This document shows, in pieces, positions 7,799 through 45,484 of a stretch of DNA of 64,000 nt. A program made the translations under genes and the position numbers. Position 1 is the stretch's first letter. The number at the start of each line of letters is the position of its first letter. Under the pieces are notes generated by a model. That model did no database searches. It was not told the origin of the DNA and saw only the letters and a program-made list of their open reading frames with translations. Origin of the DNA: Planctomycetota bacterium (GTDB lineage Bacteria > Planctomycetota > UBA8108 > UBA1146 > JAJFFE01); the NCBI GenBank assembly GCA_046154185.1, contig JBJXGE010000070.1, forward strand, positions 129,935 through 193,934, given 5' to 3'.

Positions 7799-9623
7799 TC
7801 CTCGCGACCGCCCGCCGCAACTTCCGGTGGCTATCGAAGAGTCGGACGAAGTCTGACTCGTGCCGCCCGCCTTTGGCTTTCACCACGGCCGCGAGCGCCC
7901 GCTTTTCGGCTACGGTCCATCCCGAGACGCCATCGAGCGCCATCACCAACGGGATCCATCGCTCCCAGGCCTGCCGCTCGTGCGCGTCAAAGCCGCGCAG
8001 CGACTTGAGCCCAAGTAACTGCATCGCCTCTCGAGAACACACGCGCATTCCTTCTTCGCGCGCCGCTCCGAAGCGCGCCGCCAAGTAGCGCGATACTGCC
8101 GCCCCAATCTCGCCGAGCGGCAACCGCCCGATCACATCCGCACGCGGCCGTCCTGTGTAATAGAAAACCTCCGCGGCTGCGAGCCGCTTCAGCGTCGGTA
8201 TGTCCGAACGATGTCGTGGGTTCTTTCTTACCGCCGCCAACTCGCGATCGACGATTCGCAACACTTCGCGATCGTGCGGCCGAAATCCCAACTTGTAATA
8301 GAACCACCAGGCACCCGACTTCAGCCCTTCCGAGTTCTCGTGCCCAAGCTGATACGGATCGATGACGAACGCGTCCGCACCGAACACGTGCCGCGCCGCC
8401 GCGAGCACGCGCCCATAGATGTAGCCGCTCTCACCGCCGCGAAACGTCTCGAACACGTTGTAGGCGATCTCAGCGGAATTGAAGAGCGAACTCACCAACA
8501 CGTAACCGATCGGCACGCCGTTCTTGAGCATCAAAAATGCGTAAACCGCTTCCAGCATCAAGCGCCGCTCGGGCACGAGCCCGATGCACGCGAACTGGAG
8601 TCCGTCGCCGCACTCGATCATGCGCACGTCGCGCGGATTGGAGTACTTGAATGAGTAAAGGTCGCGGGCGCGCGTCACCATCGACTCGCGCGCGAGTTCG
8701 ATCAGCGCTTCCGCTTCGCGCGGCTTCACATCCAACACGGCGAGCGGCGCGCGCCGCAACTCCTTCGGTAGCTCCGGTCGCTCGAGCCGCAACGGGCGGC
8801 GCTGAAACACGAGCTTCGACCCCGCGAAACGGGCGTCGGTTCGGTTCGGCGTTTCTGGCCCCGACTTCAAGGTGTACGGAACGTCGAGGTCCTCGTAGCG
8901 TTTCTCGCGCGTGAACGCATCGCCGGGCATCTGCTCGAAACGCTTCACGAGAAACGCGCCGTCGGTCTCGCCCGGTTGCTTCAATAGTTCGATCCACTCG
9001 CGCGGCGCCGCGGAATAGTTATCGAGCGCCAACGTCTCCGTGTACGGCAGAATCAACGGCAACTCCTCGACGAGTCGCTCGGAGTTTTCGAACGTCGGCC
9101 AGTCGATGCGCAATTGCTCCGGCCAGCGCTCCGCGAGCCACTGCGCGGTCGGCCAATAGAATGAATAGTAGATAGTCGTTCCCGCGACGCCGCTGTCAGC
9201 CAGCGCCGCGCGGTGACGTCGAAGGTCGCGGCGGTTCGCAAAGACCGCCAGTATTCGTTCCGCCTCGGCGAGCAACTCAGGCCCGTCGGGATATGCGCGC
9301 ATGAAACAGAGTACTTCGTGAAAGCGGAGCAGCGCGCTCGCCCGCCCAAACCTCGCCCGGTCCAGCGCGCGCATCAACGCGACTTTGCGCACCGCGGCGT
9401 CCCCGCCATACGAGAGCTTCAACCCCTCGAGTTCCTGCAACAGCGCGATCGTGCCTCGTGTGACCATGACCGGCACTCTATCGGAAAAGAGGGCGCGGCG
9501 TCGATGCGGCGGCACCCGCTCTCGCCGCGTCCGCGGGGTTCCTTCGATCAAGCGACCGCGCAAACGACTATGCGGCGCCCGATGGGCGCCGCATAGTCGG
9601 CTCGAGATCACACTGCCCGACAC
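7791..9623 (-). CDS. Hypothetical protein with possible GNAT-like C-terminal fold
   Basis: A long unbroken ORF. The C-terminal half (RGGESGYIYGRVL ... WWFYYKLGFRP) resembles acyl-CoA N-acyltransferase motifs. The true start is uncertain; an alternative Met at 9467 is possible. Confidence 0.45.
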   Translation of the reverse strand: MSGSVISSRLCGAHRAPHSRLRGRLIEGTPRTRRERVPPHRRRALFSDRVPVMVTRGTIALLQELEGLKLSYGGDAAVRKVALMRALDRARFGRASALLRFHEVLCFMRAYPDGPELLAEAERILAVFANRRDLRRHRAALADSGVAGTTIYYSFYWPTAQWLAERWPEQLRIDWPTFENSERLVEELPLILPYTETLALDNYSAAPREWIELLKQPGETDGAFLVKRFEQMPGDAFTREKRYEDLDVPYTLKSGPETPNRTDARFAGSKLVFQRRPLRLERPELPKELRRAPLAVLDVKPREAEALIELARESMVTRARDLYSFKYSNPRDVRMIECGDGLQFACIGLVPERRLMLEAVYAFLMLKNGVPIGYVLVSSLFNSAEIAYNVFETFRGGESGYIYGRVLAAARHVFGADAFVIDPYQLGHENSEGLKSGAWWFYYKLGFRPHDREVLRIVDRELAAVRKNPRHRSDIPTLKRLAAAEVFYYTGRPRADVIGRLPLGEIGAAVSRYLAARFGAAREEGMRVCSREAMQLLGLKSLRGFDAHERQAWERWIPLVMALDGVSGWTVAEKRALAAVVKAKGGRHESDFVRLFDSHRKLRRAVARIT

Positions 9624-9646
9624 GTCGCGTCACGCGCGCCGACGTC

Positions 9647-11731
9647 TCACGGGCACGGCGAGTAACTCGCGCAATCGAGCGCGTCGTCCGTCAGGTCGGG
9701 GCCGCAGGTCGATGGCCCCGGGAACGGAATCACGGCGCCGAGGAACAGCCCGGACAACATGTGAATCGGGTCGCCGATGTTGAAGTTGCCGTCGTCGTTG
9801 GCGTCGACGGCATCGAGACACGTGGCGAGCGGCCCCCCGCTGAAGAGTGAACTCAACGCGTAAATCACGTCGCCGATGTTGAAGCCACCGTCGGCATTCG
9901 CGTCGCCACGCTGGAAGAACGGCTCGGAGCCGGGACCGAAGAACCCGCTGAGGTACGCGGCGGCGAGCGCGTTTTTATCGCCGCCGTAGCCGCCGAATTC
10001 CCACGATTGACACAGGACAGGCGCACTCGGAATGTCAAGGAACACGCCGGTCGTGTAGCTCCCAAGGCCGCCGTTCAACCACACCGATCCGGCGGGCTGC
10101 AGCGGATCCGGTAGCAAACGATCGGTGTAATCGTTGCCGAACTGGTCTTGCGAGTAAGACGCGGCATAGCCGAGCAAATGCAGGGGACCGTGGTTCGCGC
10201 CGATCATGGCGACGAACGAATCGTCGCCGTCGCCGACGCCGAAGTCCGCGACGCCATCGACCGCGGCAAATGGCGTGGCCGGGTCGAAGCCCCAGATGTC
10301 GGCGCCTTCGCAGTAAATCGGGGTTCCCGCATCGGCCAACGCCGCGAGGAGAGCGCCGTCGCCGAACGACAGAACGTAATTATCAGGATAAGTACCAGCG
10401 CACACGAACACCGCGCGCGGCTGCGACGCGAACACCGACGGATCGAGGCGACTGACGACGGCGACGGGCTCTGCCAGATTCGCGAAGGCGCCGGCGAGCG
10501 TCGCCGCGCTTGCAATCAAACCATCGCCGCTCTCCAAATCGCACACGACCAACGCATCGGCGACCGCCACGCGGCAGCGCGCTTCATCGAGTTTGCCCGC
10601 GGGGGTGTGCGACTCGACCGTGAACTCGTGCACGCCACTCAGCGGCGGTGACACATAACTGGTTTCTAATCCCGGCATCACGGCGACCAGCTCGCCGTCG
10701 ATTCGCACTTGAATCAGCGCGAGCATCTGGCCGGGACCAAGCGCCCAGTTGAGCTGCACGACGCCCGTCGTCGGATCGATCGGCGTCACCGCGCAACTCA
10801 AGTTGCGAATCGGTCGCGGCGCCGGAAAGGCCGAGTTGCGCAACTCGACGCGACCGAGCCAGCCGAGTTCCGGCGAATCGTTCTGGAACATCAAAGTCCA
10901 GTTGCCGCCGACCGGCAGGCCCGTGAGTTCGAAGAGCGAGCCCGGGCCGCTCGGCTGCAAATCCCGGCCGCTACGCATGAAAGGCGGTGAGTTCGGCTCG
11001 CCGATCGCCGAGTAGCTCGACCAAAGTTGATTCTCGCCGGATGCGCCGCCGTGATCGTGAAGTCGAGTCGTGTCGCCGTTGGGCGCAATCAAGTCGATCG
11101 CCAAGCCGCTGAGACTGAGTTGCACCAACTCGATCTCCACTTGCAGGTCGGACACCGGCGCGGTGCTGGGCAGGAACACGTTGACGGCCGTGAGCCCAGG
11201 CGGGAGTAACGAAATCGTACTGAGCATCCCGCTCACGTCGTGGGGCGCGACGGCGCAAAGTAGGATCTTGCAGTTCTGTGACGTACCGCTCGTTTGCTTC
11301 GTGTGATCGGTTCCCACGAGCTTGTAGATGATGTACTCGCCATTTCCGAGTTTGCCCTTCTTGTCGCCGACGGCGGCGATGCAAATCTTGAACGTGACGT
11401 TCCCTTCGCTGTTATCCGCGCGCGAGAAGCAGAGGAACTTCTTCGTGCCGACAGTGGCGATGGACTTGGTCCAGCCGTCGGGAATTCCGCCGGCGCCGTT
11501 GCCGGTCACGTTCGCATCCGGGATGTTCTCGTCGATTTCGACGTAGACTCGGCTGATCGGATTATTCGAATCGACGCCGGTGACCTCGACGTCGAAGTAA
11601 GTCGAGTCGGCGGGCGCGCCGGCGGGCCGCGTCCCCGCTTTGATCTTCGGCGCCTTGTAGGCGAACACCTGCAGCGGAATCAAGAGCGCGAACACGAGCG
11701 CCGCGCGTCCGAGGCGAGATTGACAAAACAT
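9647..11731 (-). CDS. Secreted protein with proprotein-convertase P-domain-like region and C-terminal Cys-rich dockerin-like module
   Basis: Start at ATG 11731, preceded by AAAGGAG with a 5-nt spacer. Signal peptide MFCQSRLGRAALVFALLIPLQVFA. P-domain-like segment IDLIAPNGDTTRLHDHGG...NWTLMFQNDSPELGWLGRVELR. The last 90 aa are FQRGDANADGGFNIGD...DANDDGNFNIGD...PFPGPSTCGPD...CP. Confidence 0.7.
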   Translation of the reverse strand: MFCQSRLGRAALVFALLIPLQVFAYKAPKIKAGTRPAGAPADSTYFDVEVTGVDSNNPISRVYVEIDENIPDANVTGNGAGGIPDGWTKSIATVGTKKFLCFSRADNSEGNVTFKICIAAVGDKKGKLGNGEYIIYKLVGTDHTKQTSGTSQNCKILLCAVAPHDVSGMLSTISLLPPGLTAVNVFLPSTAPVSDLQVEIELVQLSLSGLAIDLIAPNGDTTRLHDHGGASGENQLWSSYSAIGEPNSPPFMRSGRDLQPSGPGSLFELTGLPVGGNWTLMFQNDSPELGWLGRVELRNSAFPAPRPIRNLSCAVTPIDPTTGVVQLNWALGPGQMLALIQVRIDGELVAVMPGLETSYVSPPLSGVHEFTVESHTPAGKLDEARCRVAVADALVVCDLESGDGLIASAATLAGAFANLAEPVAVVSRLDPSVFASQPRAVFVCAGTYPDNYVLSFGDGALLAALADAGTPIYCEGADIWGFDPATPFAAVDGVADFGVGDGDDSFVAMIGANHGPLHLLGYAASYSQDQFGNDYTDRLLPDPLQPAGSVWLNGGLGSYTTGVFLDIPSAPVLCQSWEFGGYGGDKNALAAAYLSGFFGPGSEPFFQRGDANADGGFNIGDVIYALSSLFSGGPLATCLDAVDANDDGNFNIGDPIHMLSGLFLGAVIPFPGPSTCGPDLTDDALDCASYSPCP

Positions 11732-12028
11732 GACCGCTCCTTTCGAGTGAGCACGCATGAGAGTCCGTGTATCCACAACTAAAGCGGTATTGCGCGATGT
11801 GGGCGAAAACGGACAACTCAGTCGGGCGCGAACAAGCTCGTCAGTGGGGCTTGGAGGTCCGACGCGGTCGAACTATGCGCCAACGCGGGCCGTCGCGACT
11901 CTCGCGAGCAACAACTGCGCGAAGCGCGACCTCGTGTCCGCGGTGTTAACCGCGTACATCCCGCCGAGAGTATCGAAGGGAGCGGCGCGACGGTGGCTGT
12001 TTCGAGTCGCCGGCACGAGCGCGTCCGG

Positions 12029-22966: not shown

Positions 22967-23287
22967 GTTGGGGGCCTCCTTTGCAAGAAACGTCGGCAGC
23001 GCACGCGGTGCCGATCAGTTTGCAGCTCCGATCACGTCGGATGGGTAACAGGGATGTAACGACGCAACGGCGACTGGCGGCGGTGGCCCGCGCCAAAACC
23101 AGCGCGACGTCCGCACGACGGTAGCGAGGATTCTGCCTGGGTGGTTTTAGCGTGAGCGGGATTGTCGTTGCGGCGCTGCCTCCCGTCATACGCCGGCCGA
23201 AGTTGCATAAGCGAACGCTTCCGATCCGTGATAGAAAACGCCGGCGCTAGAGGCGCGCTCGAACTCGTTTCCGAACAGGAGGATTCG

Positions 23288-24562
23288 ATGGCGATTCGTT
23301 CCCTGTTTGTTCCCATCGGCGCGACGGCGCTTGCTGTCGCGCTGGGTACTCTCACCTTGCCGGACCACGTTGAGCAAGAGATCCAGTGGCGCTCGGACCT
23401 CAAGGCTGCGGCGTTGATTGCTGCGCGCGAAGGACAACCGCTGCTGCTGGTCTTTCGCTGAGAAAAATGAAGGGATTGCGCTCCCTTTGACGAGCAGTTG
23501 GCTCGTCCATCCAGCGAGATCGTGGCATTGGCAAAGTCCTTTGTCTGCGTGCGCGTGACCGACATGCGCGAGGTCGATCTTGCGCGCTGGCGGTTCGATT
23601 TCGATCTTACCTTCGCGGCGTTGACGGCCGATGCCGATGGAACGGTGCTGCATCGCTACGGCGGGCGAGCGGCCCACGATCCACAGTCGGCGCTGTCCAT
23701 GCCGTCGTTCGCGGCCTTCTTGCGCGAGTCGCTTGCGGATTGGCGAACATACCGCAAGGATCCGCATCCGCCGAGCCTCGGACCCCCGCGTACTATCGAA
23801 GCCGTACCGGCATTCAAGAACCGCCAAAACAAGAAAGCGGGCGAGTGTGTGCATTGCCACACCATTCATGATTACGAATACAAGCAGGCCATCCTCGATC
23901 GATCGTGGCGCAGAGAACAAATGTGGAAGTTTCCCGACCCGGCGCGCCTCGGCATTGAAGTTGCCCGCGACCAACAGACTCGAATCATCTCGGTCGCTGC
24001 CGACTCCGCCGCGGCCGCAGCTGGAGTGCAAGTGGACGACTTGATTGTCAGCGCCGCGGGAAAGCGCATGGCGACTCGCGCCGATTTGCAGTGGATTCTC
24101 AACGGTCTTCCCTTCACGGCAACAGAGTTGGCGCTCGAACTCCGCCGCAATGAATTGCCCGTGGCGACGACCCTAAAACTGCCCGATGGTTGGAAGACAG
24201 CAAGCGCTTATGAATATGGTTGGCGACCCTTCAAATGGAATTTGCCGCCGCATCCGGGATTCGGCGGCAGCATTCAAGATGCCGACACAAAGCGGTCGCT
24301 CGGCTTGAAGGAAGACGAGTTCGCCCTGCGAATCGATTATCTCGTGACGTGGGGTGACGACGCTCGCACCGGCGAGAACGCCCAACGCGCCGGACTTAGA
24401 AAAGGCGATCTGTTGGTTTCTGTCGCCGGTAAGCGCGACTTCAAAAGCGAAAACGAGTTCCAAGCTTGGTACCGGATGACATCAAAGCCGGGGACGGTCT
24501 TAGATCTCATCGTGCTGCGCGATGGCAAGCGCAAAACGCTGCAAATGACCGTCATTGAATAG
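23288..24562 (+). CDS. Thioredoxin-fold + tandem PDZ secreted protein, candidate selenoprotein with two in-frame UGA (U-x-x-U) codons
   Basis: ORFs 23162..23461 and 23498..24562 are in the same frame and separated only by TGA at 23459-23461 and TGA at 23468-23470. The translation is ...AAREGQPLLLVFR*EK*RDCAPFDEQLARPSSEIVALAKSFVCVRVTDM..., which has a thioredoxin-like (DUF255/Thioredoxin_7-like) layout. The signal peptide MAIRSLFVPIGATALAVALG starts at 23288. Two PDZ domains lie in the C-terminal half. Confidence 0.55.
23489..23507 (+). promoter_or_regulatory. SECIS-like hairpin downstream of the tandem UGA codons
   Basis: GACGAGC-AGUUG-GCUCGUC forms a perfect 7-bp stem with a 5-nt loop containing GU. 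It lies 27 nt after the first UGA and 18 nt after the second. Confidence 0.4.
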
Positions 24563-24623
24563 CGCTGCTGCGATGCTAGTGAGTGTCGCTGAAGAAGACG
24601 CAAGCATCGGAAGTGAAGCAAAC

Positions 24624-24666
24624 ACGAACTCGCCGGGCGCCGGCCGTCGGCGCCCGGCGAGTTCGT
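24624..24666. terminator. Bidirectional intrinsic terminator between convergent genes
   Basis: An 18-bp perfect stem, ACGAACTCGCCGGGCGCC / GGCGCCCGGCGAGTTCGT, with a 7-nt loop. GTTTATTT follows on the plus strand. Confidence 0.6.
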
Positions 24667-24668
24667 GT

Positions 24669-28412: not shown

Positions 28413-30026
28413 ATGCGACTCCTCGCCTCTCAAGTTGAAACTCAGAGCCCCGAGTATCTCGCCAACCGCGAGGCCATGCAGGCGCGTCTCAACACTCTTC
28501 GCGAACGCACGCAATTCGTCGAGCGCGGCGGTCGCGACGAGGCCATCGCCCGTCACGTCGCGCGCGGCAAACTGTTTGTGCGCGACCGCATCACTGAGCT
28601 GCTCGACCCCGATTCACCATTTCTGGAAATCGGCGCGCTCGCCGCGTGGGAACTCTACGACAACGAAGCGCCGTCCGCGGGCGTCGTCACGGGCATCGGC
28701 CGCGTCGAAGGCCGCCTCGTCATGGTGGTCGCGAACGACGCCACCGTCAAAGGCGGCACTTACTTTCCGATTACGGTTAAGAAGCACCTCCGCGCGCAAG
28801 AGATTGCCGCGGAGAATCACTTGCCGTGCGTGTACTTAGTAGACTCGGGTGGCGCGTTCTTGCCGCTCCAGGATGAAGTGTTCCCCGATCGCGATCACTT
28901 CGGCCGCATTTTCTACAACCAAGCACGCATGTCGGCGCAGGGCATCGCCCAGATCGCCGTGGTGTTGGGCTCCTGCACGGCGGGCGGCGCGTATGTGCCG
29001 GCGATGAGCGACGAGGCGATCATCGTGCGCAATCAAGGCACGATTTTTCTCGGCGGACCGCCGCTCGTGAAGGCGGCGACCGGCGAGGAAGTGAGCGCCG
29101 AGGAACTCGGAGGCGGCGATGTCCATTGCCGCACGAGCGGTGTGACCGACCACTTAGCGCGCGATGACCGCGACGCGCTCGAACTCGCGCGCGCCGCCGT
29201 CGCGAATCTCAATCGCCGCAACGCTAGCGGCGCCGCCTTCGACCGCCAAGCCCCGGTCGACCCCGCCTACGACCCGCGCGAACTCTACGGCCTCGTGCCT
29301 CCCGATACGCGCAAGCCGCTCGAGATCCGCGAAGTGATCGCGCGCATCGTCGACGCCAGCTTGTTCAGCGAATTCAAACAGAATTACGGTACGACGCTCG
29401 TGTGTGGCTTCGCTCGCATCCACGGCTACCTGGTCGGCATCCTCGCGAATAACGGCGTGCTGTTCTCGGAGTCGGCGCTCAAGGCCACGCACTTCGTCGA
29501 ACTTTGCTCTCAGCGCGGGATCCCGACGATTTTCATCCAGAACATCACCGGCTTCATGGTCGGCAAGAAATACGAGCAAGGCGGCATCGCGAAGGATGGC
29601 GCGAAGCTCGTGCACGCAGTCGCGAATTCTCCAGCGCCACGGTTCACGGTCGTGGTCGGTGGATCGCACGGCGCCGGCAACTACGGCATGTGCGGGCGCG
29701 CGTATCAGCCGCGACAGATGTGGATGTGGCCGAACGCGCGCATCTCCGTCATGGGCGGCGAGCAAGCGGCGCAGGTGCTGCTCACCGTCAAGCGCGACCA
29801 GCTCGCCGCGAAAAAACAGCGACTCACCGCGGCCGCGGAAGAGGAGATCGTCGCGCCGATTCTCGCGAAGTACGACACCGAGGGTAGTCCGTACTACTCG
29901 ACCGCGCGACTGTGGGACGACGGCATCATCGACCCCGCGCGCACGCGCGATGTTTTAGGTCTCGGCATCGAGGTCGCGGCCGAAGCGCCGCTCGCCGAGC
30001 GACGCGTCGGCATCTACCGCATGTAG
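28413..30026 (+). CDS. Methylcrotonyl-CoA carboxylase carboxyltransferase (beta) subunit
   Basis: Acyl-CoA carboxyltransferase family, 537 aa. It is clustered with methylglutaconyl-CoA hydratase-like, biotin carboxylase, BCCP and HMG-CoA lyase genes. Confidence 0.85.
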
Positions 30027-30037
30027 GAGCACGTCGA

Positions 30038-30832
30038 ATGCAGTTTCAGTATTTGCTCGTCGATCATTCGACGGCGGTCGCACGCGTCACGTTGAATCGT
30101 CCCGAACTGCACAATGCGTTTAGCGATGAAGTGATTGTCGAGTTGCGCCGCGCGTTCGACCAACTCGCCGCAACGCCGCACGTGCGTGTGATTGTCCTTG
30201 CCGGCGCCGGCAAGTCGTTTTCCGCGGGCGCCGACGTAAACTGGATGCGGCGCATGGTCGACTACAGTCGCGCCGACAACGAGCGCGACGCGCGCGCCAT
30301 GGCCGAGATGTTTCGCGCCATCGATCGCTCACCCGCGCCGGTCATTGCGCGCGTGCACGGCGCCGCGCTCGGCGGCGGCACGGGACTCGCCGCCGTCGCG
30401 GACATCGCGGTCGCCGCCGAGAGCGCAAAGTTTGCGCTCTCCGAAGTGCGACTCGGCATTATTCCGGCCGTGATCTCACCGTACGTGCTCGCGAAGATCG
30501 GCGTGGCGCGGGCGCGCGAGTACTTCCTAACGGGCGAGCGCATCGACGCGCGCCGCGCCGCCGAGATTGGATTGGTAGCGCACGTCGTGCCGGACTCCGA
30601 ACTTGATGCCGAGGTCGCGCGCATCACCGGCGAACTCCTGAAGTCCGGCCCGCAAGCGGTCGCCACCGCGAAAGCGCTTATCCGCAAAGTCGCGGCGGAA
30701 ACGGATCCCGATCGTGTGCTCACGCTCACCTCGCAGGCCATCGCCGAGCGTCGCGCGAGCGACGAAGGGCAAGAAGGCTTGAAGGCTTTTCTCGAGAAAC
30801 GCCCGCCGAGCTGGATCAAGGACGCCGAGTAA
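30038..30832 (+). CDS. Enoyl-CoA hydratase/isomerase family (methylglutaconyl-CoA hydratase-like)
   Basis: ATG at 30038 with AGGAGC upstream. Crotonase fold with VIVLAGAGKSFSAGADV. Confidence 0.8.
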   Translation: MQFQYLLVDHSTAVARVTLNRPELHNAFSDEVIVELRRAFDQLAATPHVRVIVLAGAGKSFSAGADVNWMRRMVDYSRADNERDARAMAEMFRAIDRSPAPVIARVHGAALGGGTGLAAVADIAVAAESAKFALSEVRLGIIPAVISPYVLAKIGVARAREYFLTGERIDARRAAEIGLVAHVVPDSELDAEVARITGELLKSGPQAVATAKALIRKVAAETDPDRVLTLTSQAIAERRASDEGQEGLKAFLEKRPPSWIKDAE

Positions 30833-32332
30833 ATGCGCGTCTTGGTGGCGAATCGCGGCGAGATTGCACTCCGCGTCCTGCGCGGAGTGAAGACGCTTGG
30901 GCACGAGGCGATCGCCGTGTATTCCGACGTCGATGCCGCGCTCCCGTTCGTGCGCGCCGCGGATCACGCCGCGTGCATCGGTCCCGCGCCCGCGGCGGAG
31001 AGCTATCTTTCCATCGAAAAAATCATCGCTGCGTGCCGCACAACCGGCGCGACCGCGGTGCATCCGGGTTATGGCTTCTTGTCAGAAAATCCACGTTTCG
31101 CGGACGCCGTCGAAAGCGCTGGGATTGTCTTCATCGGGCCGACGGGCGCATCGATGCGCCTCATGGGCGATAAGACAGCGGCCATCGAAACCGCGCGCGC
31201 CGCGCAAGTGCCGACCGTACCGTCTTACACACCGGCAACCGGCGAAGATCCAAAACGCCTCGCACGCGAAGCCCAGAACATCGGCTTTCCCGTGCTGATC
31301 AAGGCCGCCGCCGGCGGCGGCGGCAAGGGCATGCGCGTCGCTCGCAATCTAGCGGAACTCGCCGAGCTGCTGCCTTCCGCGGTGCGCGAATCGACCTCGG
31401 CTTTCGGCGACGGCCGCGTATTCATTGAACGATACATCGAACGCGCGCGGCACGTGGAAGTGCAAGTACTCGGCGACGGCAAGGGTGATGGCGTGGCACT
31501 GGGCGAACGGGACTGCACGCTGCAACGCAGGCATCAAAAACTCATCGAAGAGGCGCCGGCCCCGCGACTCGCGGACGCCGTGCGCACACGCCTCCACGCG
31601 GCGGCAGTCGCGCTCGTCAAGAAGACGAGCTACCGCGGCGCCGGCACGATCGAATTCATCCTCACGCCAACGGGCGAGTTCTTCTTCTTGGAGATGAACA
31701 CGCGTCTCCAAGTCGAGCACCCAGTCACGGAGCTGGTGCATGGCATCGATCTCGTGGCGCTGCAGCTTGCCGTCGCGCTCGACGAGCCGCTGCCCGCAAG
31801 TTTGCGAAATTGCGTGCCGCGCGGACACGCGATCGAAGTGCGCGTCTACGCCGAGACGCCCGCAACCGGATTCTTGCCGAGCATAGGACGGCTCACGGAA
31901 GTGGTGTGGCCGGCGGGCCCGGGCATTCGCGTCGACGCCGGCTACGAGCGCGGCAACGAAGTGTCGATGCACTACGATCCGCTGATCGCGAAGATCATCG
32001 CGCACGGCGCCGATCGCGCGCAGTGCATCGCGCGCTTGCGGAGCGCCCTCGCCGAGACGTTCGTCGCGGGCGTTGATACGACCGTCGGCTACTGTCGTGA
32101 TCTCTTGGGTCGCGCCGAGTTCCGCGACATGGACGTCTACACGACCTTCATTCAGGAACAAGCGAACGGCGCATCGCCGACGACGAGCGACGATGGTTGG
32201 ACACGCGCGGCAGCCGCCGCCGCGGTTTTTCTAGGCGTGCAAGAAGGCGCGCGCGCCGCGAACGGCGCAGGCGCGCAGCAGATTGCACCGTTGTGGCAGA
32301 GCCTCCCCGGCTGGAAAATGTGCAACTCATGA
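30833..32332 (+). CDS. Biotin carboxylase (alpha subunit of MCC, BC domain only)
   Basis: MRVLVANRGEIALRVLR is the classic BC N-terminus. The ATP-grasp region follows. Ends with TGA at 32330-32332. Confidence 0.9.
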   Translation: MRVLVANRGEIALRVLRGVKTLGHEAIAVYSDVDAALPFVRAADHAACIGPAPAAESYLSIEKIIAACRTTGATAVHPGYGFLSENPRFADAVESAGIVFIGPTGASMRLMGDKTAAIETARAAQVPTVPSYTPATGEDPKRLAREAQNIGFPVLIKAAAGGGGKGMRVARNLAELAELLPSAVRESTSAFGDGRVFIERYIERARHVEVQVLGDGKGDGVALGERDCTLQRRHQKLIEEAPAPRLADAVRTRLHAAAVALVKKTSYRGAGTIEFILTPTGEFFFLEMNTRLQVEHPVTELVHGIDLVALQLAVALDEPLPASLRNCVPRGHAIEVRVYAETPATGFLPSIGRLTEVVWPAGPGIRVDAGYERGNEVSMHYDPLIAKIIAHGADRAQCIARLRSALAETFVAGVDTTVGYCRDLLGRAEFRDMDVYTTFIQEQANGASPTTSDDGWTRAAAAAAVFLGVQEGARAANGAGAQQIAPLWQSLPGWKMCNS

Positions 32333-32808
32333 GCGACGCGCCGAAGAGTCCCGCGCGCGTGCGCCGCGACGGTGATCGCCTCCAGATCGATGTTCCGGAT
32401 GAAGCGGCACCCTACACGGTCGTTTCGTGGTTGCCGCCGCGTCTCGTCCTCGCTCGCGGTCCCGAGCAGCGCGCGTTCTTCATCGCCGGCGACGCCGACT
32501 TTCTGTGGCTCGGACACGATGGCCACGTCGTGCGCACGGCGCGCGCCGGTCGCCGCCGCAGCGGCGCGGCGCATGCCGCGCAAGGCCACGAAGACTTGTC
32601 GTCACCGATGCCGGGCAAGGTGCTCGCGGTACTCGTTGCGGAAGGTGACCACGTGAAAGCCGGCCAACAACTGCTCGTCGTGGAAGCGATGAAAATGGAA
32701 TCGCCCATCCGAGCGCCGCACGACGCCGTGGTCACGCGCATTCGCACGACCAAAGGCGCAAGCGTCGCGCCGGGCGAAACGCTGATCGAGTTAGAGGCAA
32801 AAGCGTGA
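32329..32808 (+). CDS. Biotin carboxyl carrier (biotinyl/lipoyl) subunit encoded separately
   Basis: The ATG at 32329 overlaps the upstream TGA (ATGA). The biotinylation motif EAMKME lies near the C-terminus. Confidence 0.7.
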   Translation: MSDAPKSPARVRRDGDRLQIDVPDEAAPYTVVSWLPPRLVLARGPEQRAFFIAGDADFLWLGHDGHVVRTARAGRRRSGAAHAAQGHEDLSSPMPGKVLAVLVAEGDHVKAGQQLLVVEAMKMESPIRAPHDAVVTRIRTTKGASVAPGETLIELEAKA

Positions 32809-33746
32809 CGGCGCGCCTTCGCGATCGCCTGCCGCGCACCGTGCGCGTCGTCGAAGTCGGCCCGCGTGACGGACTCCAGAATCAACCGCACCAAATTCCG
32901 ACGGACATCAAAGCCGAGTGGATTCGGCGACTCGATCGTGTCGGCCTCAGCGAGATCGAGGCGACCTCGTTCGTGCATCCGAAATGGGTGCCGCAGCTCG
33001 CCGACGCGACGCCGCTGCTCGCGGAACTCGCGCGCGGCACGCCGCTGCGAACGCCGCTCTCGGCGCTCGTACCAAATCTCAAAGGGCTCGAGCCCGCGCT
33101 CGCCGCCGGGCTCGAACGCATCGCGCTCTTCACCGCGGCATCGGAGACGTTTAGCAAAAAGAACACGAACGCGAGTCTCGACGAGACGCTCGCGCGCTTT
33201 GCTGAAGTGTTTGCCGTGCTCGCCGCGCGGCCGACCGGAGGACGCGTGCGCGTGCGCGGCTACGTTTCGACGTGCTTCGGTTGTCCGTACGAGGGCGCGA
33301 TTTCGCCGGCCGCGGTCGTGCATGTTGCGCGCCGCCTCCGCGAACTCGGCTGCGCCGAGATCGCACTCAGCGACACGATCGGTGTTGCCACGCCCGCGCA
33401 AGTGGAAGAGGTCGTGCTCGCGGTCGCCGAGCATGTGCCGCTCGGCGACCTGGCGCTCCACTTTCACGACACGCGCGGCACGGCGCTTGCAAATGTCTAC
33501 GCCGGCCTCTTACTCGGCGTGCAAACTTTCGATGCGTCGGCGGGCGGTCTCGGCGGCTGTCCGTTCGCGCCCGGCGCCGCCGGCAATCTCGCGACCGAGG
33601 ATCTCGTGTACATGCTTCAAGGTCTCGGCCTTGCCGGTGATGTCGATCTGGCTGCGCTCGGCGCGGCGACGCTTTGGTTCGAGGCGCAACACGGCGCCAC
33701 GTTGCCCGGTCGCGTGCTCGGGAGTTTGCGAGGCCCGCAGAAGTAG
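32805..33746 (+). CDS. Hydroxymethylglutaryl-CoA lyase
   Basis: VRVVEVGPRDGLQNQ near the N-terminus. DRE-TIM family. The GTG start overlaps the upstream TGA. Confidence 0.85.
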   Translation: MTARLRDRLPRTVRVVEVGPRDGLQNQPHQIPTDIKAEWIRRLDRVGLSEIEATSFVHPKWVPQLADATPLLAELARGTPLRTPLSALVPNLKGLEPALAAGLERIALFTAASETFSKKNTNASLDETLARFAEVFAVLAARPTGGRVRVRGYVSTCFGCPYEGAISPAAVVHVARRLRELGCAEIALSDTIGVATPAQVEEVVLAVAEHVPLGDLALHFHDTRGTALANVYAGLLLGVQTFDASAGGLGGCPFAPGAAGNLATEDLVYMLQGLGLAGDVDLAALGAATLWFEAQHGATLPGRVLGSLRGPQK

Positions 33747-34649: not shown

Positions 34650-35546
34650 TCAGAAGTTGACGCACCACATCAGCAGTATGCCGTCGCCGGCGGCGGTCGG
34701 CGCTGGCACGAACTTCCAGATCTCAAAAATCCCATCGCCGTCGCGGCCATAATGCGCGTCCCAAACTGTGTTCGCGAGGTAGCCGCCGATAATGATCGAC
34801 GCGGCGACATCGGTCGGAAAATGCTTGTCGTTTTCGACGCGCGTGAACGCCGTGTAGATGACGCCGCCATAGAGGGCGAGCTCGGCCGGCACGAACCAGA
34901 GACTCTGCGCGCGCAACCAGCGCCCCGAGACCACCGCGCCCGCCATTGCGCTCGCCACGTGCCCGGATGGAAACGAGCGATTCGACGGGTTCGCGCGCCC
35001 GCCGCGACCGGAATTATTGTTCGGTCGTTCGCGGCCGACGAGCGGCTTCAGAAGCTCTGTCGCTAGCACCGTCCACCCCACCGACTCGACGCCGACTTCG
35101 ACGAGTTCCAGCGCCGAATCCGACTCCGGCGGAAACACCGCCGCCGCGCCGGCCGCAACCAGCGGCGAACCCGCGAGCACCGCGGCGACGACATCGCCGT
35201 GACGACTGCCGCTCGACCCACCAACGGGACGGTCGCGCGTGAGCCGTCGCGAAATCCGATCATCCTCCTCGGCGAGAAACGGCAATGCCACCAGCGTCGC
35301 GATCGACGGCAAGTGTTGCGGATTGAGCGGTGAAGCCGCTGCGAGCCAAGGATCTGCCTGAACGTGCGCGGCGAGCCAGGATCGGTCGGTTGGTTCTGGG
35401 TTAGCGCGTTGCGGCGTAGCGCTGCAGCCGACGAAGGGCAGCGCGCTGACGAAAAACAAACACGCGACATCGCACCGGTTACTGAGTCTTGCGATCCAGT
35501 GACTCGCCCGACTCTGCTCTTTGCAGCTCGAACCCGTGTGCACCAA
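34650..35546 (-). CDS. PAP2-family (type 2 phosphatidic acid phosphatase-like) membrane phosphatase
   Basis: KPLVGRERP ... PSGH ... (SR..H) motifs. The start is probably an internal Met. Confidence 0.6.
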   Translation of the reverse strand: MVHTGSSCKEQSRASHWIARLSNRCDVACLFFVSALPFVGCSATPQRANPEPTDRSWLAAHVQADPWLAAASPLNPQHLPSIATLVALPFLAEEDDRISRRLTRDRPVGGSSGSRHGDVVAAVLAGSPLVAAGAAAVFPPESDSALELVEVGVESVGWTVLATELLKPLVGRERPNNNSGRGGRANPSNRSFPSGHVASAMAGAVVSGRWLRAQSLWFVPAELALYGGVIYTAFTRVENDKHFPTDVAASIIIGGYLANTVWDAHYGRDGDGIFEIWKFVPAPTAAGDGILLMWCVNF

Positions 35547-37113
35547 TAAATCCCCAGGGCGTTGTCAGATTATCGACGATTGCCAACGTCGCGATTCGGC
35601 CACGCAGGCTCGTTAGCTCCCAGCGAACTTCAAACGGCAAATTATCGCAACGGCCCGTCATGCGCCGATGGGCGCGCGGACCATCCCACAGTTCGATCGC
35701 GAGCTGTCCGGGATCATAGCCGCCGTGCACGAAGAATCGCAACTCGAGCGCGTCGTCGGGCACGAGGAAACACTGATACAAACGGCCAACATTGTCGTCG
35801 CCCTTCTTGCCGAAACTCGAAAGACGCCCCGCGCCGCGACCGCCGTAGACCAAGAACTGATCCGCGCCGTCTTCCGCGATCCAGCCGTCAAGACCTTGCG
35901 TGAAGTCGCCGTTCTTGAGCGCTCGTTGCTCGCGATCCGCACGCGCCGCGACGGCCGCCTCCGCTGCTGGCACTTCCCGCACGACATCCGCACACGGCGG
36001 TCGATCGTATGCAAAGCCGAATTCCGCGTGCGGACTTTCATCGCAGTATCCGAACCAAAATTCGCCGCCTGCTTGAAACGGCTCACGCAATTCGAAGTTC
36101 TCGATCGCCGGCCCGCCGGGAATCGGCGACTTCGTGCCCCAGTAAACGCGACGCCCGTTGGTGCGACAACGCACGCGACTGTCCCAGGTCCCTGCGCGCT
36201 TGAGCCAAAACTGCGCTTGCCAACGCCCGAGATGGCGCCAGGCGCCATCCGGCAGCGGCCAAACTTCGCTCGGCTCGACTTCGTCTGGCGAGATCGCGAC
36301 GACCAAATCACCGGCGAGCGTCTGATGCAACTCGGCCGCTGGGATCAGCGATCGCTCCATGAAGCCGTTGCGTCGATGGTCCGAGAACAACGCGTGCGCA
36401 CTCTCGGCGCGTTCCGCGAGCCAAAGATCCCGACAACGCGATTGGTTGCCCATTGTCGCCGTCAGTACGCACTCTTTGAGCGGTGCGCACTTCTCCGCGG
36501 CGAAAGTGCGCAAACACACGCGCCGCGGCTCTTGTTGATGGAGCGTGACTTCAATGATCGGGCGCGCGCCGTTGGCGAACTCCTCGACGTGAATCGCGAA
36601 GCGCAAGGCCGGACCGAACTCGGTCGTTAGCAATTCAGACGGCGGTATCGCGTCGGCGTCGACGGGTTGCGCGTCGACTTGCGACGACAAGCGAAACTGT
36701 TTGCCACGTTCGCCGTCCGCCGAACGCTCCAACTCCGAGAGTCCACGTTTTCCATCGACCAGCGGTTCGACCGCGATGTAATTGATCAGCGTGAATTTCC
36801 CGTTCTCTTCGTAGCCGACGCGCAACAATCCACGCGGACCGCCTTCGGGTCGGGCGTCCAGCGCTGCCGGATAGACAGCGACAACGATTCCGCCCCGCAC
36901 TCCGTAGATCGGCGGGTCGCCGGCCTTCATGGGCCGAATAAAATCCGCGGCCAGTGGACTCGCGAGGAACAAGCAACAAACGATCGCGCCAACCACGACG
37001 CGACTCGTCGTCGCGCGCCAACAACGCGTTTCGATTGCGAAGACCGCTGCGCGGTGTCGTTTCGCACGCTGGTTATGAACTGTCATCTGTCTCCCCCGAA
37101 AGGAATACACCAC
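35479..37113 (-). CDS. Hypothetical secreted protein
   Basis: A long ORF with a hydrophobic N-terminal segment VVVGAIVCCLFLASPLAADF. No recognisable domain. Confidence 0.45.
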   Translation of the reverse strand: MVYSFRGRQMTVHNQRAKRHRAAVFAIETRCWRATTSRVVVGAIVCCLFLASPLAADFIRPMKAGDPPIYGVRGGIVVAVYPAALDARPEGGPRGLLRVGYEENGKFTLINYIAVEPLVDGKRGLSELERSADGERGKQFRLSSQVDAQPVDADAIPPSELLTTEFGPALRFAIHVEEFANGARPIIEVTLHQQEPRRVCLRTFAAEKCAPLKECVLTATMGNQSRCRDLWLAERAESAHALFSDHRRNGFMERSLIPAAELHQTLAGDLVVAISPDEVEPSEVWPLPDGAWRHLGRWQAQFWLKRAGTWDSRVRCRTNGRRVYWGTKSPIPGGPAIENFELREPFQAGGEFWFGYCDESPHAEFGFAYDRPPCADVVREVPAAEAAVAARADREQRALKNGDFTQGLDGWIAEDGADQFLVYGGRGAGRLSSFGKKGDDNVGRLYQCFLVPDDALELRFFVHGGYDPGQLAIELWDGPRAHRRMTGRCDNLPFEVRWELTSLRGRIATLAIVDNLTTPWGFIGAHGFELQRAESGESLDRKTQ

Positions 37114-37362
37114 GTGTCATGACACGCAGTTGGACGAGACACTATGGCACCGAAACCGAGGGAAGGGAAGCCGTGAGCTGAGCGCGCGGGAATAGCCGAT
37201 ACGCGACTTTGTCCGAATTCCCAGCACGGGACTCCAGCCGTGCGTGCGTAAGCTCTGTACGCCGTCGTCGCATTTCCTTTAACGAAGAATAGACAAAGAA
37301 AATAAGCCAGAGGTTTTTGGCGCTCGCGACGCCAACGTCGCGAGCACCAAAGATTTTCATCG

Positions 37363-38244
37363 CTACGGAAGCTGAACCTCGTCGTCGAACTTGTAATCGC
37401 TATACGTGAAAACCGACGAGCTCATCTGCTGCTCGCCCATCCGCGACACCATCGTCTCTTTCACTGGCACGTAATACTTGCCGACGACTGCGTATTCGTT
37501 CTCGACCGTCACTGCAATCGTGCCCATGCCTTGAATCGCGATGTTGATCACTTGTTTCTTGAGTACGTACTGCCCCTCGTGCTCTGCGAATTCCGTCGTC
37601 ATCAAGCCCGCGGTCGGCGGACCCGCCTTCTTGAAATTCATTTCGAGACTCGCCGGCAGGCCTTGCGCGTTGAGCGTGACACTCTTGATGCCATCCAATT
37701 GATCGCCTTCACACACGATCTTCGTCTTGCCGTCGACGAGCACACTCGACAACTTGCAGCCGGAGAACTGGTCCGGCCAGCGCGTGTCGCGAAAGTGCTC
37801 TTCGAGCTTTTTCGCTTCCAAGCCCGCGCGCGCCGCGCTGCCGCGATCCGCCGCATTCGCGAACGACAACTTGCCGGCCTGGCCGTCCCAAGCGTAGTCG
37901 AACGCTCCTTCCGACGAAGTACCCATCGCTTCGGTCTTAAACGTCCCCTTCAGAGTCGCTTTCTTGAGCCCTTTCCGAGCGGCCATGTAGCTCAGCTCGT
38001 CCATCTTGTCGAGCAGCTTGGCGGTCTCAGGATCGGCGGTCCCGGGCGTTTTCTTCTCCGCCGCCGGGGGGGCGCCGTTGCCCGGTTTGAGGGTCTCCGG
38101 TTTCGCCGGCTCGGGCTTATTGACCGGCGGAATCGGCACGGGCTTCGGTTCGGCGGGCGGAGCCTGACCGACAACGATATGGCCCATCGCGAACATCCAG
38201 CCGGCGAGCAGCAGAAACATCACGGACCTGCGAATCGACATGCG
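37363..38244 (-). CDS. Hypothetical secreted protein with Pro/Lys-rich linker
   Basis: Start MSIRRSVMFLLLAGWMFAMG (signal), followed by a PPAEPKPVPIPPVNKPEPAKPETLKPG linker. Confidence 0.5.
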   Translation of the reverse strand, partial: RMSIRRSVMFLLLAGWMFAMGHIVVGQAPPAEPKPVPIPPVNKPEPAKPETLKPGNGAPPAAEKKTPGTADPETAKLLDKMDELSYMAARKGLKKATLKGTFKTEAMGTSSEGAFDYAWDGQAGKLSFANAADRGSAARAGLEAKKLEEHFRDTRWPDQFSGCKLSSVLVDGKTKIVCEGDQLDGIKSVTLNAQGLPASLEMNFKKAGPPTAGLMTTEFAEHEGQYVLKKQVINIAIQGMGTIAVTVENEYAVVGKYYVPVKETMVSRMGEQQMSSSVFTYSDYKFDDEVQLP

Positions 38245-38384
38245 GCCTCCAGATTCTCGGTTCAAAAGTGCGTTCAACAAGAAAGCCGCGCCATTGTATG
38301 GCGCGCCCCGAACGACAGCCACGCCAATAGGCGCCGCGCAGATCGCGGCTGCGTCGCGATCGCGCGATCTCGTAGAATCCGCGC

Positions 38385-39900: not shown

Positions 39901-40153
39901 AGAGCGGCATGCTCTCCAACGGATGAGATTGCATGCGAATACCGATCACGGTTTCGAGCTTCATCGAAAACTCTTAGGCAGAGACGGCTACAAAATCACC
40001 CACGTCTAGCACGACGCGGGCGGGAATCGAGTATTGACGTGCCCGAGCGCCGTCAGTCGACTAGACTATCGCGCCTTCGAGCGGTGCTCGACCGAGTCGA
40101 GGGTTTTTGAATTCCTACGGGCGGTGGTTTTCGCGTTGGGAAAGGGAGGCGGA

Positions 40154-43770: not shown

Positions 43771-43943
43771 CCGTGAATAGATCTCCAAGTACTGGCGCAG
43801 CGTGTCGGCCGCGGAGTGAGCGAGCCATCGCATCGCCTCGATTTCCAACCGAGGAGCGTCGCACGTTAACATGTCGCGCGCCGGCTCAGCCATTGATGGC
43901 GGGCGTTTGCGCTCGAGTTGAATCCTTCTGAGAGAAAACACCC

Positions 43944-45290: not shown

Positions 45291-45484
45291 CGGAACACGC
45301 TGGCGAGCCAGAAAGAGCAACGTCGCCGCGACGGGGCGCATCCCACGCATGGGACTCTCCGTGTCGCAAGCTCGTCGAGTCGGACGTCAATTGGGACGAG
45401 AAAGCCATAGTCGCCGCGTGCGTGCGCGCATTATCCTGAGCGCGCCCTCGATGAACTCGAACTCTCGACTCACAAGGAGAACGC

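Follow-up and report, generated by a model that had tools for sequence, protein, structure and literature searches.

A bacterial SECIS works at a set distance from its UGA, and thus the decoding of two UGAs lying 6 nt apart is a question. Bacterial proteins with a UxxU motif include, besides hydrogenases, Prx-like 2, FmdB-family proteins and the metal-binding protein NF041115, while in SelL the UxxU stands in place of the canonical CxxC. Group 4 [NiFeSe] hydrogenase large subunits are UxxU proteins whose CxxU and UxxU forms reportedly share an unchanged SECIS (PMC13582414), and it is for these hydrogenases that the decoding of adjacent UGAs was raised explicitly as a question in 2026. SelL, from eukaryotes, is a peroxiredoxin-like selenoprotein whose UxxU forms a diselenide (Shchedrina et al. 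2007, cited in PMC2398784). A further family, NCBIfam NF041199 'Trx7/PDZ domain-containing (seleno)protein', was found in 2008 by the GOS study, where it was named 'putative secreted serine protease MucD' (PMC2398784), and reviews enter it as 'PDZ domain-containing protein, pfam13899, CxxU', with one Sec (PMC9312934; PMC13188914).

The DNA analysed here, a 64 kb stretch from a bacterium of the Planctomycetota (hereafter the window), contains a gene of this family with two in-frame UGAs. As a sequence-only reading of the window had claimed, a single frame of 425 codons runs from an ATG to a TAG (24560-24562) and is broken internally by two TGAs only (UGA1 and UGA2, Table 1), the translation being ...PLLLVFR-U-EK-U-RDCAPFDEQLARP... 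With U replaced by C, the NF041199 HMM matched at 363.4 bits (cut-off 300, E = 1.3e-108) over profile positions 1-389 of 390 and protein residues 32-421. The window protein is a full-length member of NF041199, and a new protein family is ruled out, since NF041199 already covers it. It has in common with the family the signal peptide, the Thioredoxin_7 domain, a C-x-H-C-H motif and two PDZ domains; the SECIS hairpin is shared too, and the CxxU position of the catalogue is occupied by Sec. The catalogued form, however, is CxxU with one Sec, whereas the window gene and other UxxU members have UxxUxxC and an extra hairpin, H1.

The thioredoxin-like domain and the two PDZ domains expected from the sequence-only reading were recovered by Pfam (PF13899 on residues 33-92, 30.9 bits) and by NF041199. 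Its signal peptide also held, as a signal-peptide-like N-terminus; in full-length Cys homologues the signal peptides are of the classical kind, with an AxA end. The C, H, C and H of the C-x-H-C-H motif were unchanged throughout two 36-sequence alignments, and the motif may bind a metal or haem, or form a second redox pair. A Foldseek search of the PDB with the model of a Cys homologue gave matches in the tandem PDZ part only (DegP, DegQ, RseP), the C-terminal half of the model superposing on the tandem PDZ domains of these proteins. Unlike DegP-type proteins, the window protein has no protease domain; the thioredoxin-like and DegP-type proteins used for comparison, in turn, lack the extra upstream Cys/Sec and the C-x-H-C-H motif. 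Judging from the family architecture, the PDZ domains would presumably tether substrate proteins via their C-termini.

Table 1. Features of the selenoprotein gene and its immediate surroundings (positions in the window).
Feature	Position	Strand	Remarks
Shine-Dalgarno-like AGGAGG	23277..23282	+	5 nt upstream of the ATG; read from the sequence
Complete CDS, Trx7/PDZ selenoprotein	23288..24562	+	424 residues, two Sec counted in; reading frame, NF041199, Pfam
Signal-peptide-like N-terminus (MAIRSLFVPIGATALAVALGTLTL)	23288..23359	+	predicted from the sequence
Thioredoxin-like (Thioredoxin_7) core holding the U-x-x-U-x-x-C triad	23384..23563	+	PF13899, PDB alignments
Predicted lower stem, three-way junction around UGA1, H1 and H2	23453..23519	+	23453-23463 pairs with 23510-23519
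UGA1, first Sec codon	23459..23461	+	TGA in 35/81 homologues, TGC/TGT in 46/81
UGA2, second Sec codon	23468..23470	+	TGA in 74/81 homologues, Cys in 7/81
Hairpin H1, core AGGGA-UUGCGC-UCCCU at 23471-23486	23469..23488	+	up to 7 bp; putative accessory element
TGC, C3, third member of the triad	23477..23479	+	resolving-Cys position of the canonical CxxC; also in the H1 loop
Hairpin H2, GACGAGC-AGUUG-GCUCGUC, predicted SECIS	23489..23507	+	7-bp stem, loop AGUUG
C-V-H-C-H motif, residues 187-191	23846..23860	+	invariant; between the Trx domain and PDZ1; CXXCH type
PDZ domain 1	23939..24187	+	Pfam PDZ_2, PDZ_6 and PDZ on residues about 218-297
PDZ domain 2	24368..24553	+	second PDZ_2/PDZ_6 stretch; NCBIfam DegP/DegS-type partial matches, residues 361-424
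Bidirectional intrinsic terminator, 20-bp, GC-rich	24623..24667	.	serves the convergent peptidase M1 gene as well

The homologue survey covered 81 species-level loci, namely 35 with both TGAs (UxxU forms), 39 with the second TGA only (CxxU) and seven all-Cys forms (CxxC). The two TGAs occupy an identical register in the 35 UxxU loci, each from another species and with 40-57% identity at the protein level, which goes far beyond chance. Alignment of the U-to-C translation with the homologues, proposed earlier as a check, placed Cys or Sec at both UGA positions: Cys is found opposite UGA1 in 46 of the 81 members and opposite UGA2 in seven, and full-length Cys homologues carry RC[IV]PCxxC at the Sec region. 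The in-frame residues between and past the TGAs (E-x, [KR]-D-C, FDGQ) are also kept across homologues. Since the double TGA is kept in 35/81 homologues, it is conserved and not an error, and the observation of a Sec gene with two in-frame UGAs is real. It is hardly credible that the TGAs are true stops or errors and that the locus represents a pseudogene, an assembly error, or a 57-residue peptide followed by a PDZ protein starting from TTG 23498. Gene callers and RefSeq do annotate the downstream ORF only, but 35 species share both TGAs at identical codons, opposite the Cys of uninterrupted homologues and amid conserved in-frame residues, and the downstream ORF alone would have no signal peptide and be missing half of the thioredoxin fold. 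A pseudogene or sequence error is ruled out by the conserved TGAs aligned with Cys.

Annotation pipelines do cut the gene short, as had been foreseen: more than 110 database homologues begin after the motif, including RefSeq WP_145195005.1 and two NCBI entries themselves named '(seleno)protein'. The cultured Saltatorellus ferox Poly30 has the UxxU form, its gene falling within 1417125-1424318 of NZ_CP036434.1, and its RefSeq entry is a truncated protein of 327 aa. When the N-terminal 127 residues were used to look for full-length U-annotated homologues, one fragment was the only match. The two-Sec UxxUxxC form is present in nearly half of the sampled species (35/81) and has been overlooked by public annotation. 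As for gene neighbourhood, none of six proteins flanking the window gene was found again in 80 homologous loci, and all-against-all clustering of flank ORFs, which are high-GC sequences, was uninformative for a conserved neighbourhood.

TGA is the commonest ordinary stop in the window, ending 16 of 29 Pfam-supported ORFs, with the ATGA overlap at 32329-32332 among them. Because TGA is an ordinary stop elsewhere in the window, the two TGAs represent local recoding and not a changed code, as the sequence-only reading had maintained; reassignment of the code is ruled out by these stops. No selA, selB, selC or selD was found in the 64 kb window by a Pfam scan of about 39 ORFs and a tRNA scan; neither this tRNA scan nor an Rfam scan across the window gave any hit, and a tRNA scan of 60 related loci revealed no tRNA-Sec nearby. 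The window does hold a second gene with a conserved UGA (TGA in 34/34 stops at that site) and a textbook SECIS, which is fdhF-like with an 11-nt spacer and a GGUC loop, giving indirect support to a working Sec system in the organism. This second selenoprotein gene, spotted via a Pfam domain split, is FG-GAP/ASPIC-UnbV/TlpA-like and located at about 53.2-56.1 kb, at 53286-56054; its Sec is paired with Asn or Ser, not Cys, and the residues seen so far in place of Sec are N, S or E, with Cys never among them. The window ORF 54981-56054 has a 99% identical protein, P0122, on an NCBI MAG contig, and the family of the second gene may be uncatalogued.

A hairpin downstream of the TGAs (H2) had been suggested as a SECIS within the distance range of bacterial models, and this was supported: in the window gene its loop begins 25 nt past UGA2 and 34 nt past UGA1, and it folds at -11.4 kcal/mol. 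Every one of the 74 Sec forms has H2 (mean -11.2 kcal/mol), its loop 25-26 nt from UGA2, whereas the seven Cys forms lack it (mean -3.4). In the alignment, 89-93% of the cells of H2 columns are paired, with GC/AU/CG compensatory changes, and a G is found in the first two loop positions in 74/74 Sec forms. These properties agree with the bSECIS criteria quoted in PMC13188914 (UGA-to-loop distance of 16-37 nt, MFE of -7.5 or lower, G in the first two loop positions). As all 74 Sec forms have H2 with compensatory changes and the Cys forms do not, H2 is, on comparative grounds, the SECIS of the family. It resembles the E. coli fdhF-type SECIS in having a stem of at least 4 bp, a 5-nt loop with G and then G/U first and an MFE of about -11 kcal/mol, but its spacer of 18 nt is longer than the 11 nt of both fdhF and the window's second selenoprotein gene, and in UxxU forms the spacer itself folds into H1. 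An Rfam scan of the 64 kb window gave no usable bacterial SECIS match. RNAfold predicted a Y-shaped structure for 23450-23525 (-30.1 kcal/mol, z = -3.2), and none of 200 shuffles was as stable. The lower stem of this structure was ruled out as a UxxU-specific element: it is weakly conserved, being predicted in about 23/35 UxxU and 18/39 CxxU forms.

The smaller hairpin, H1, had also been pointed out at its core positions; it extends to 7 bp and folds in the window gene at -8.4 kcal/mol. H1 follows the presence of UGA1 closely. A hairpin of -4.5 kcal/mol or better occurs in 31/35 UxxU but only 4/39 CxxU forms (Fisher 4e-12), the four latter also having a stable hairpin in the H1 region, and H1 columns are paired in 86% of cells in UxxU vs 46% in CxxU forms. 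On a neighbour-joining tree without bootstrap, the association had the same direction in six of six independent sister contrasts; for example, the H1 region folds at -8.4 in the window gene and at -1.1 in its closest relatives, L001 and L002. Compensatory variants of H1 were found in L008, L014, L049, L061 and L065, and compensatory and synonymous substitutions preserve the stem even though the encoded residues differ (KDCxSF, SDCQSF, PDCSGF, TSCKTL, GDSRSF, ADAKAF, RDCAPF). Where UGA1 has become TGC, the stem decays. The tree shows at least 8 switches of position 1 between U and C, so that the family offers a natural experiment in which CxxU and UxxU forms were interconverted and a small hairpin was gained or lost together with the extra UGA. 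Likewise, in other bacterial UxxU selenoproteins the UGAs are 6 nt apart and CxxC, CxxU and UxxU forms are intermixed on the tree; in the [NiFeSe] hydrogenases, however, the SECIS is reportedly the same in both forms, whereas UxxU forms of NF041199 have the extra hairpin.

Compared with the bSECIS criteria, H1 falls short in part, with a mean MFE of -6.4 in UxxU forms (-7.5 or lower required) and 13-17 nt from UGA1 to its loop (mode 15-16, criterion 16-37). Its stem has 5-7 bp and its loop 3-7 nt, and only 28 of the 35 forms have a G at the first two positions of the loop. In the RNAalifold consensus of the 35 UxxU sequences H1 was not recovered, because its register shifts among sequences. 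This sub-threshold character and the missing consensus call would suit another explanation, in which both UGAs are decoded as Sec by means of H2 alone and H1 is inherited, a by-product of residue preference, or an element of mRNA stability or pausing. The distances from H2 to both UGAs (25 and 34 nt) lie within the range of 16-37 nt, so that H1 may be dispensable, and the 2026 study of UxxU [NiFeSe] hydrogenases proposed one SECIS for both codons (PMC13582414). Nevertheless, we regard decoding by H2 alone as unlikely, given that H1 follows UGA1 over the six sister contrasts and through 8 or more changes of state, that its stem is held by compensatory and synonymous changes while amino acids vary, and that it decays once UGA1 turns into TGC.

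The most probable reading is that the gene encodes a secreted thioredoxin-fold oxidoreductase of NF041199 with two PDZ domains, that both UGAs specify Sec, that H2 is the SECIS and that H1 is needed for UGA1. The protein would be periplasmic, both UGAs being recoded during translation. H2 would be the SelB-binding SECIS, ancestral to the family and serving UGA2, and H1, which occupies the 18-nt spacer between UGA2 and H2 and appears to be kept only alongside UGA1, would be required for the decoding of UGA1. This might occur in two ways. H1 could be a second, minimal SECIS for UGA1, its loop coming 14-16 nt behind that codon. Alternatively, it could act as a collapsible spacer: with UGA1 in the A site, the folded H1 would shorten the single-stranded path to the H2 loop from 34 to about 17 nt, and the ribosome would melt H1 by the time UGA2 enters the A site. 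In the window's second selenoprotein gene, the SECIS loop likewise lies about 17 nt from its UGA. The collapsible spacer is slightly favoured, because the H1 loops have no conserved G-G/U.

A bolder interpretation, which we offer only tentatively, is that H1 is a nested element dedicated to UGA1, working either as a small SECIS of its own or by the collapsible-spacer route, and would be the first described tandem-Sec cis-element in bacteria; that it arose or was lost repeatedly with the first Sec; and that the triad forms a diselenide/selenenylsulfide relay undescribed in thioredoxin-fold proteins. If this is true, bacteria may in this family handle UGAs 6 nt apart by the addition of a second RNA element nested in the SECIS spacer.

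A different possibility is that a SECIS-dependent tRNA-ReC (selC*) inserts Cys at one UGA or at both, and the protein would then contain fewer than two Sec. tRNA-ReC-like genes are reported to be strongly enriched with UxxU hydrogenases, being present in about 56% vs 2.3% of genomes, and according to the same study either or both of the UGAs might in that case mean Cys (PMC13582414). The Cys forms of the family, which have Cys at both positions, are compatible with such decoding. On the other hand, the 64 kb window contains no tRNA-ReC/selC*, and a conserved change to UGA at a redox position, seen here in 74 of 81 species and combined with a SelB-type hairpin, is the usual mark of Sec, which makes the reading of either codon as Cys improbable.

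With both UGAs taken as Sec, the active-site loop of the window protein is R-U-E-K-U-R-D-C. The sequence-only reading had both UGAs filling the canonical CxxC cysteines, and this was not borne out. Alignments to solved thioredoxin-like structures cross the active site at E = 0.002-0.15 (3fk8, a disulphide isomerase of Xylella; 2l57; ERp18/TXNDC12), and in those to 3fk8 (CTDC), 2l57 (CPYC) and ERp18 (1sen/2k8v, CGAC) the canonical CxxC corresponds to U2-R-D-C3. The solved thioredoxin-like proteins have A, T or K opposite U1, three residues before the canonical nucleophile. Similarly, in the AlphaFold model of the Cys homologue P0119 (pLDDT 87.7), the strand stops at R66, and C70, equivalent to U2, is at the helix N-cap. 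Thus, by alignment, the second Sec and the next Cys occupy the canonical CxxC position as a predicted UxxC selenol/thiol pair, and the first Sec is an additional, family-specific position with a presumed redox or ligand role.

Kinship with SelL, which had also been suggested, did not hold. SelL shares with the window protein the U-x-x-U spacing, a thioredoxin-superfamily fold and a possible diselenide, but it is Prx-like (AhpC/TSA), whereas the window protein belongs to Thioredoxin_7: a Pfam search at E up to 1 matched Thioredoxin_7, Thioredox_DsbH and Thioredoxin_2 and gave no AhpC-TSA or Redoxin match. Moreover, only the second U is canonical in the window protein, its canonical partner staying Cys, and the single eukaryotic SECIS in the 3'-UTR of SelL differs from the in-frame bacterial hairpins of the window gene. 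Membership in SelL is ruled out, there being no Prx-like domain and U1 lying outside the canonical CxxC. A U-x-x-[U-x-x-C] arrangement would predict redox behaviour unlike the SelL-type diselenide. C3 is Cys in 46/46 CxxU and CxxC forms and in 31/35 UxxU forms, its loss being restricted to the latter (4/35 vs 0/46). Because C3 was lost only in double-Sec members, the first Sec may form a diselenide with the second or act as its relay.

The Trx7/PDZ gene occupies a single reading frame in which the only in-frame stops are two TGA codons, UGA1 and UGA2. The sequence-only reading had described such a frame, with two hairpins past the TGAs, and both the frame and the hairpins, a smaller one (H1) and a larger one (H2), were recovered from the window sequence. 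The conceptual product contains the segment ...GQPLLLVFR-U-EK-U-RDCAPFDEQLARPSSEIVALAKSFVCVRVTDM..., in which the two encoded selenocysteines are designated U1 and U2. With both replaced by Cys, the protein was assigned a Thioredoxin_7 domain (residues 33-92) and a pair of PDZ domains by Pfam, confirming the proposed domain composition; along its whole length it also matched equivalog NF041199 of NCBIfam, 'Trx7/PDZ domain-containing (seleno)protein' (363 bits; cut-off 300). The finding is real, and the gene belongs, with its two Sec codons, to a selenoprotein family that is not new. This family was catalogued in the GOS study under the name 'putative secreted serine protease MucD', with a CxxU motif and 2 Sec sequences (PMC2398784), and in a 2022 review as 'PDZ domain-containing protein, pfam13899, CxxU' (PMC9312934).

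Coordinates of the features in the window
Feature	Coordinates	Strand	Remarks
Long ORF	7791-11776	-	
AGGAGG	23277-23282		upstream of ATG 23288
Trx7/PDZ gene	23288-24562	+	425 codons from ATG 23288; stop TAG 24560-62
UGA1	23459-61		
UGA2	23468-70		
H1	23469-23488		stem AGGGA/UCCCU
H2	23489-23507		taken as SECIS
C-[VI]-H-C-H motif	23846-23860		residues 187-191; between Trx domain and PDZ1
Bidirectional intrinsic terminator	24623-24667		between Trx7/PDZ gene and convergent peptidase M1 gene; perfect 20-bp GC-rich inverted repeat, T-runs on both strands
Carboxylase cluster	28413-33746	+	compact
ATGA start/stop overlap	32329-32332		
Long ORF	35479-38322	-	
Long ORF	40034-42754	+	
Long ORF	43866-45350	-	
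Second gene, upstream ORF	53208-54959	+	FG-GAP/VCBS repeats; likely start ATG 53286
Second gene, TGA	54957-59		
Second gene, hairpin	54971-54987		GCGUCA-GGUCG-UGACGC; 11 nt past UGA
Second gene, downstream ORF	54981-56054	+	UnbV_ASPIC and TlpA-like WCxxC (WCGNC) domain

A species scan with one genome per species yielded 252 relatives; 80 loci were retained, nearly all from Planctomycetota with a few from Armatimonadota and Verrucomicrobiota. The motif was read in every locus, and among the 81 loci including the window it has the UxxU form (both positions Sec) in 35, the CxxU form (only the second Sec) in 39 and the all-Cys CxxC form in 7, all in one fixed register; the aligned residues, which the sequence-only reading had proposed to compare, are Cys or Sec at both positions throughout. 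Both TGAs are found at identical codons in 35 species with 40-57% protein identity, and the residues between and after them are conserved in frame, which excludes sequencing errors as well as a pseudogene or a pair of separate genes. TGA is also the most frequent genuine stop of the window, terminating 16 of 29 Pfam-supported ORFs, including one at the ATGA overlap, so the genetic code is not reassigned and the recoding is local, as had been claimed.

Among the best 120 of 155 relatives found by the protein search, more than 110 are about 330-370 residues long and start just past the motif, a signature of miscalled selenoprotein genes, while the full-length relatives P0114-P0120 carry R-C-[IV]-P-C-x-x-C or R-C-V-P-C-Q-C. 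Truncation by annotation pipelines had been anticipated, and is seen in the 327-residue RefSeq 'PDZ domain-containing protein' of the cultured Saltatorellus ferox Poly30 (WP_145195005.1) and at the N-terminus of two NCBI entries bearing the name '(seleno)protein'. Within 1417125-1424318 of its complete genome (NZ_CP036434.1), this planctomycete encodes R-U-E-P-U-R-D-C, a UxxU form accompanied by H1 as well as H2, which makes it an experimentally tractable host for this form.

The N-terminal domain was compared by phmmer with solved Trx-like proteins, the CxxC of which aligned to U2 and the following Cys (C3, the third of the triad): GANW-CTDC of 3fk8, KTDT-CPYC of 2l57 and HKSW-CGAC of ERp18 (1sen, 2k8v) place A, T and K, respectively, opposite U1. 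In the AlphaFold2 model of a Cys homologue, P0119 (pLDDT 87.7, pTM 0.84), the strand ends at R66, and helix 71-81 has C70 (equivalent to U2) at its N-cap and C73 (equivalent to C3) in its first turn. On these alignments and this model the active site reads U-x-x-[U-x-x-C], a canonical UxxC pair with an extra upstream Sec. The same evidence rules out a SelL-like UxxU in place of CxxC, with UGAs at both of its cysteines, as had first been supposed; membership of SelL fails as well, since SelL is peroxiredoxin-like whereas the present family is of the Thioredoxin_7 type and has no peroxiredoxin-like domain. The third Cys is kept in all 46 CxxU and CxxC forms but has given way to another residue in 4 of the 35 UxxU forms (S in L014, A in L049 and L055, M in L057). 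Its loss only in UxxU forms favours a working U1-U2 pair, and suggests that U1-U2 can stand in for U2-C3.

In structure, the C-terminal half overlays the PDZ tandems of DegP, DegQ and RseP, and the protein carries no protease domain. The C-[VI]-H-C-H motif, which no Pfam domain spans, is invariant throughout the aligned members of the family, whether they are Sec or Cys forms; it fits the CXXCH haem-c pattern, but a metal site or a second redox pair would be just as possible.

H2, a 7-bp hairpin directly downstream with the loop A-G-[G/U]-U-x, is present in 74/74 Sec forms, and its region has a mean MFE of -11.2 kcal/mol in these versus -3.4 in the seven Cys forms. Its columns are paired in 93.5% of cells in UxxU and 89.1% in CxxU forms, compensatory changes among GC, AU and CG are numerous, and it was found by RNAalifold unguided. 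It agrees with the bSECIS criteria of a 2026 review (stem 4-16 bp, loop 3-9 nt, G within the first two loop positions, UGA distance 16-37 nt, MFE -7.5 or lower; PMC13188914), in support of the earlier assignment of the downstream hairpin as a SECIS. RNAfold of 23450-23525 gave a Y-shape, consisting of a lower stem containing UGA1 and the arms H1 and H2, at -30.1 kcal/mol (z = -3.2; 0/200 shuffles folded equally well).

H1, a hairpin of 5-7 bp, occupies the 18-nt spacer between UGA2 and H2, usually with the third Cys codon in its loop, and its association with UGA1 is strong. Its mean MFE is -6.4 kcal/mol in UxxU versus -1.7 in CxxU forms (Mann-Whitney p = 1e-11), -4.5 kcal/mol or better is reached in 31/35 versus 4/39 (Fisher p = 4e-12), and its columns are paired in 86% versus 46% of cells. 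Because both tests ignore shared ancestry, a neighbour-joining tree was made from the last 350 residues; on this unbootstrapped tree motif position 1 switches between U and C at least eight times by Fitch parsimony, and H1 is more stable in the U clade in 6/6 independent sister contrasts (among them the window, -8.4, versus its closest relatives L001/L002, -1.1; L065, -4.8, versus L067/L070, -2.1; L008, -6.6, versus an 18-member CxxU clade, -1.4). Compensatory changes in UxxU forms preserve the stem although the encoded residues vary, as in AAGGAC/GUCCUU (K-D...S-F), AGCGAC/GUCGUU (S-D...S-F, with a different Ser codon), CCCG/CGGG (P-D...S-G) and CGUCU/AGACG (T-S...K-T), besides GGCGA/UCGCU and ACGC/GCGU. 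H1 was not included in the RNAalifold consensus of the 35 UxxU sequences, because its register shifts among them. Spacer hairpins of -4.7 to -6.1 kcal/mol with differing sequences occur in four CxxU loci (L015, L050, L016, L071), so that H1-like folding is not strictly confined to UxxU forms.

H2 would be the ancestral SECIS and serve UGA2. It could in principle serve both codons, being also within the permissive range of UGA1 (34 nt); one SECIS for both was proposed for UxxU hydrogenases, in which it was reported to be alike in CxxU and UxxU forms (PMC13582414), whereas in the Trx7/PDZ family an extra element, H1, tracks the extra codon. The same 2026 paper names, for UxxU motifs, the alternative that tRNA-ReC inserts Cys (PMC13582414). 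UGA2 is probably decoded via H2, and UGA1 by a mechanism dependent on H1, for which two possibilities may be considered. [quoted passage not shown] Alternatively, H1 may act as a collapsible spacer, folded outside the ribosome when UGA1 is in the A site, so that the single-stranded path to the H2 loop would be 9 + 1-2 + 7, about 17 nt, equal to the UGA-to-loop distance of the SECIS in the second selenoprotein gene of the window (11-nt spacer and 6-bp stem); three codons on, the ribosome would have melted H1, and H2 would work at the ancestral 25 nt. The collapsible spacer is slightly preferred, since the G-[G/U] conserved in the loop of H2 is missing from the loops of H1.

Several further bacterial families were already known to have UxxU motifs. 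New with respect to the literature searched are three points: the UxxUxxC form is widespread, the canonical redox pair is now placed correctly, and an accessory hairpin co-varies with the extra UGA. The main interest lies in a testable decoding mechanism.

The flanking genes (DUF4943, a Kelch-repeat protein, peptidase M1 and an aspartyl protease) are functionally unrelated, lie on diverging or converging strands, and none recurs beside homologues of the Trx7/PDZ gene. No tRNAs were found in the 64-kb window, and no sel genes among the approximately 39 window ORFs scanned.

The second gene is a candidate selenoprotein gene, composed of two ORFs in one frame parted by a single TGA (...SMKDT-U-SHFWRQVV...). 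Nearly all of its best 120 database relatives cover one side of the TGA only; in 80 metagenomic loci the stop is TGA in all 34 homologues with a stop, and the other 15 homologues have N, S or E, never Cys. The hairpin beyond the UGA is conserved, with a GGUC loop like that of fdhF, and its stem varies among homologues in a compensatory manner. No NCBIfam model names the protein, and it is absent from the 2026 selenoprotein catalogue and from the literature search; it may represent an undescribed family of selenoproteins. The presence of this gene speaks for a functional Sec system in the organism. A protein from an NCBI Planctomycetota MAG (P0122) is 99% identical to the downstream ORF.

None of the four long ORFs (319-906 aa) matches Pfam at E <= 1e-4, and they are either real genes of unknown families or spurious high-GC ORFs. 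The carboxylase cluster, which includes the ATGA overlap, contains genes for a carboxyltransferase, an enoyl-CoA hydratase, a biotin carboxylase, a biotin carrier (biotin-lipoyl) protein and an HMG-CoA-lyase-like protein, the gene set that would be expected for methylcrotonyl-CoA carboxylase and leucine catabolism.
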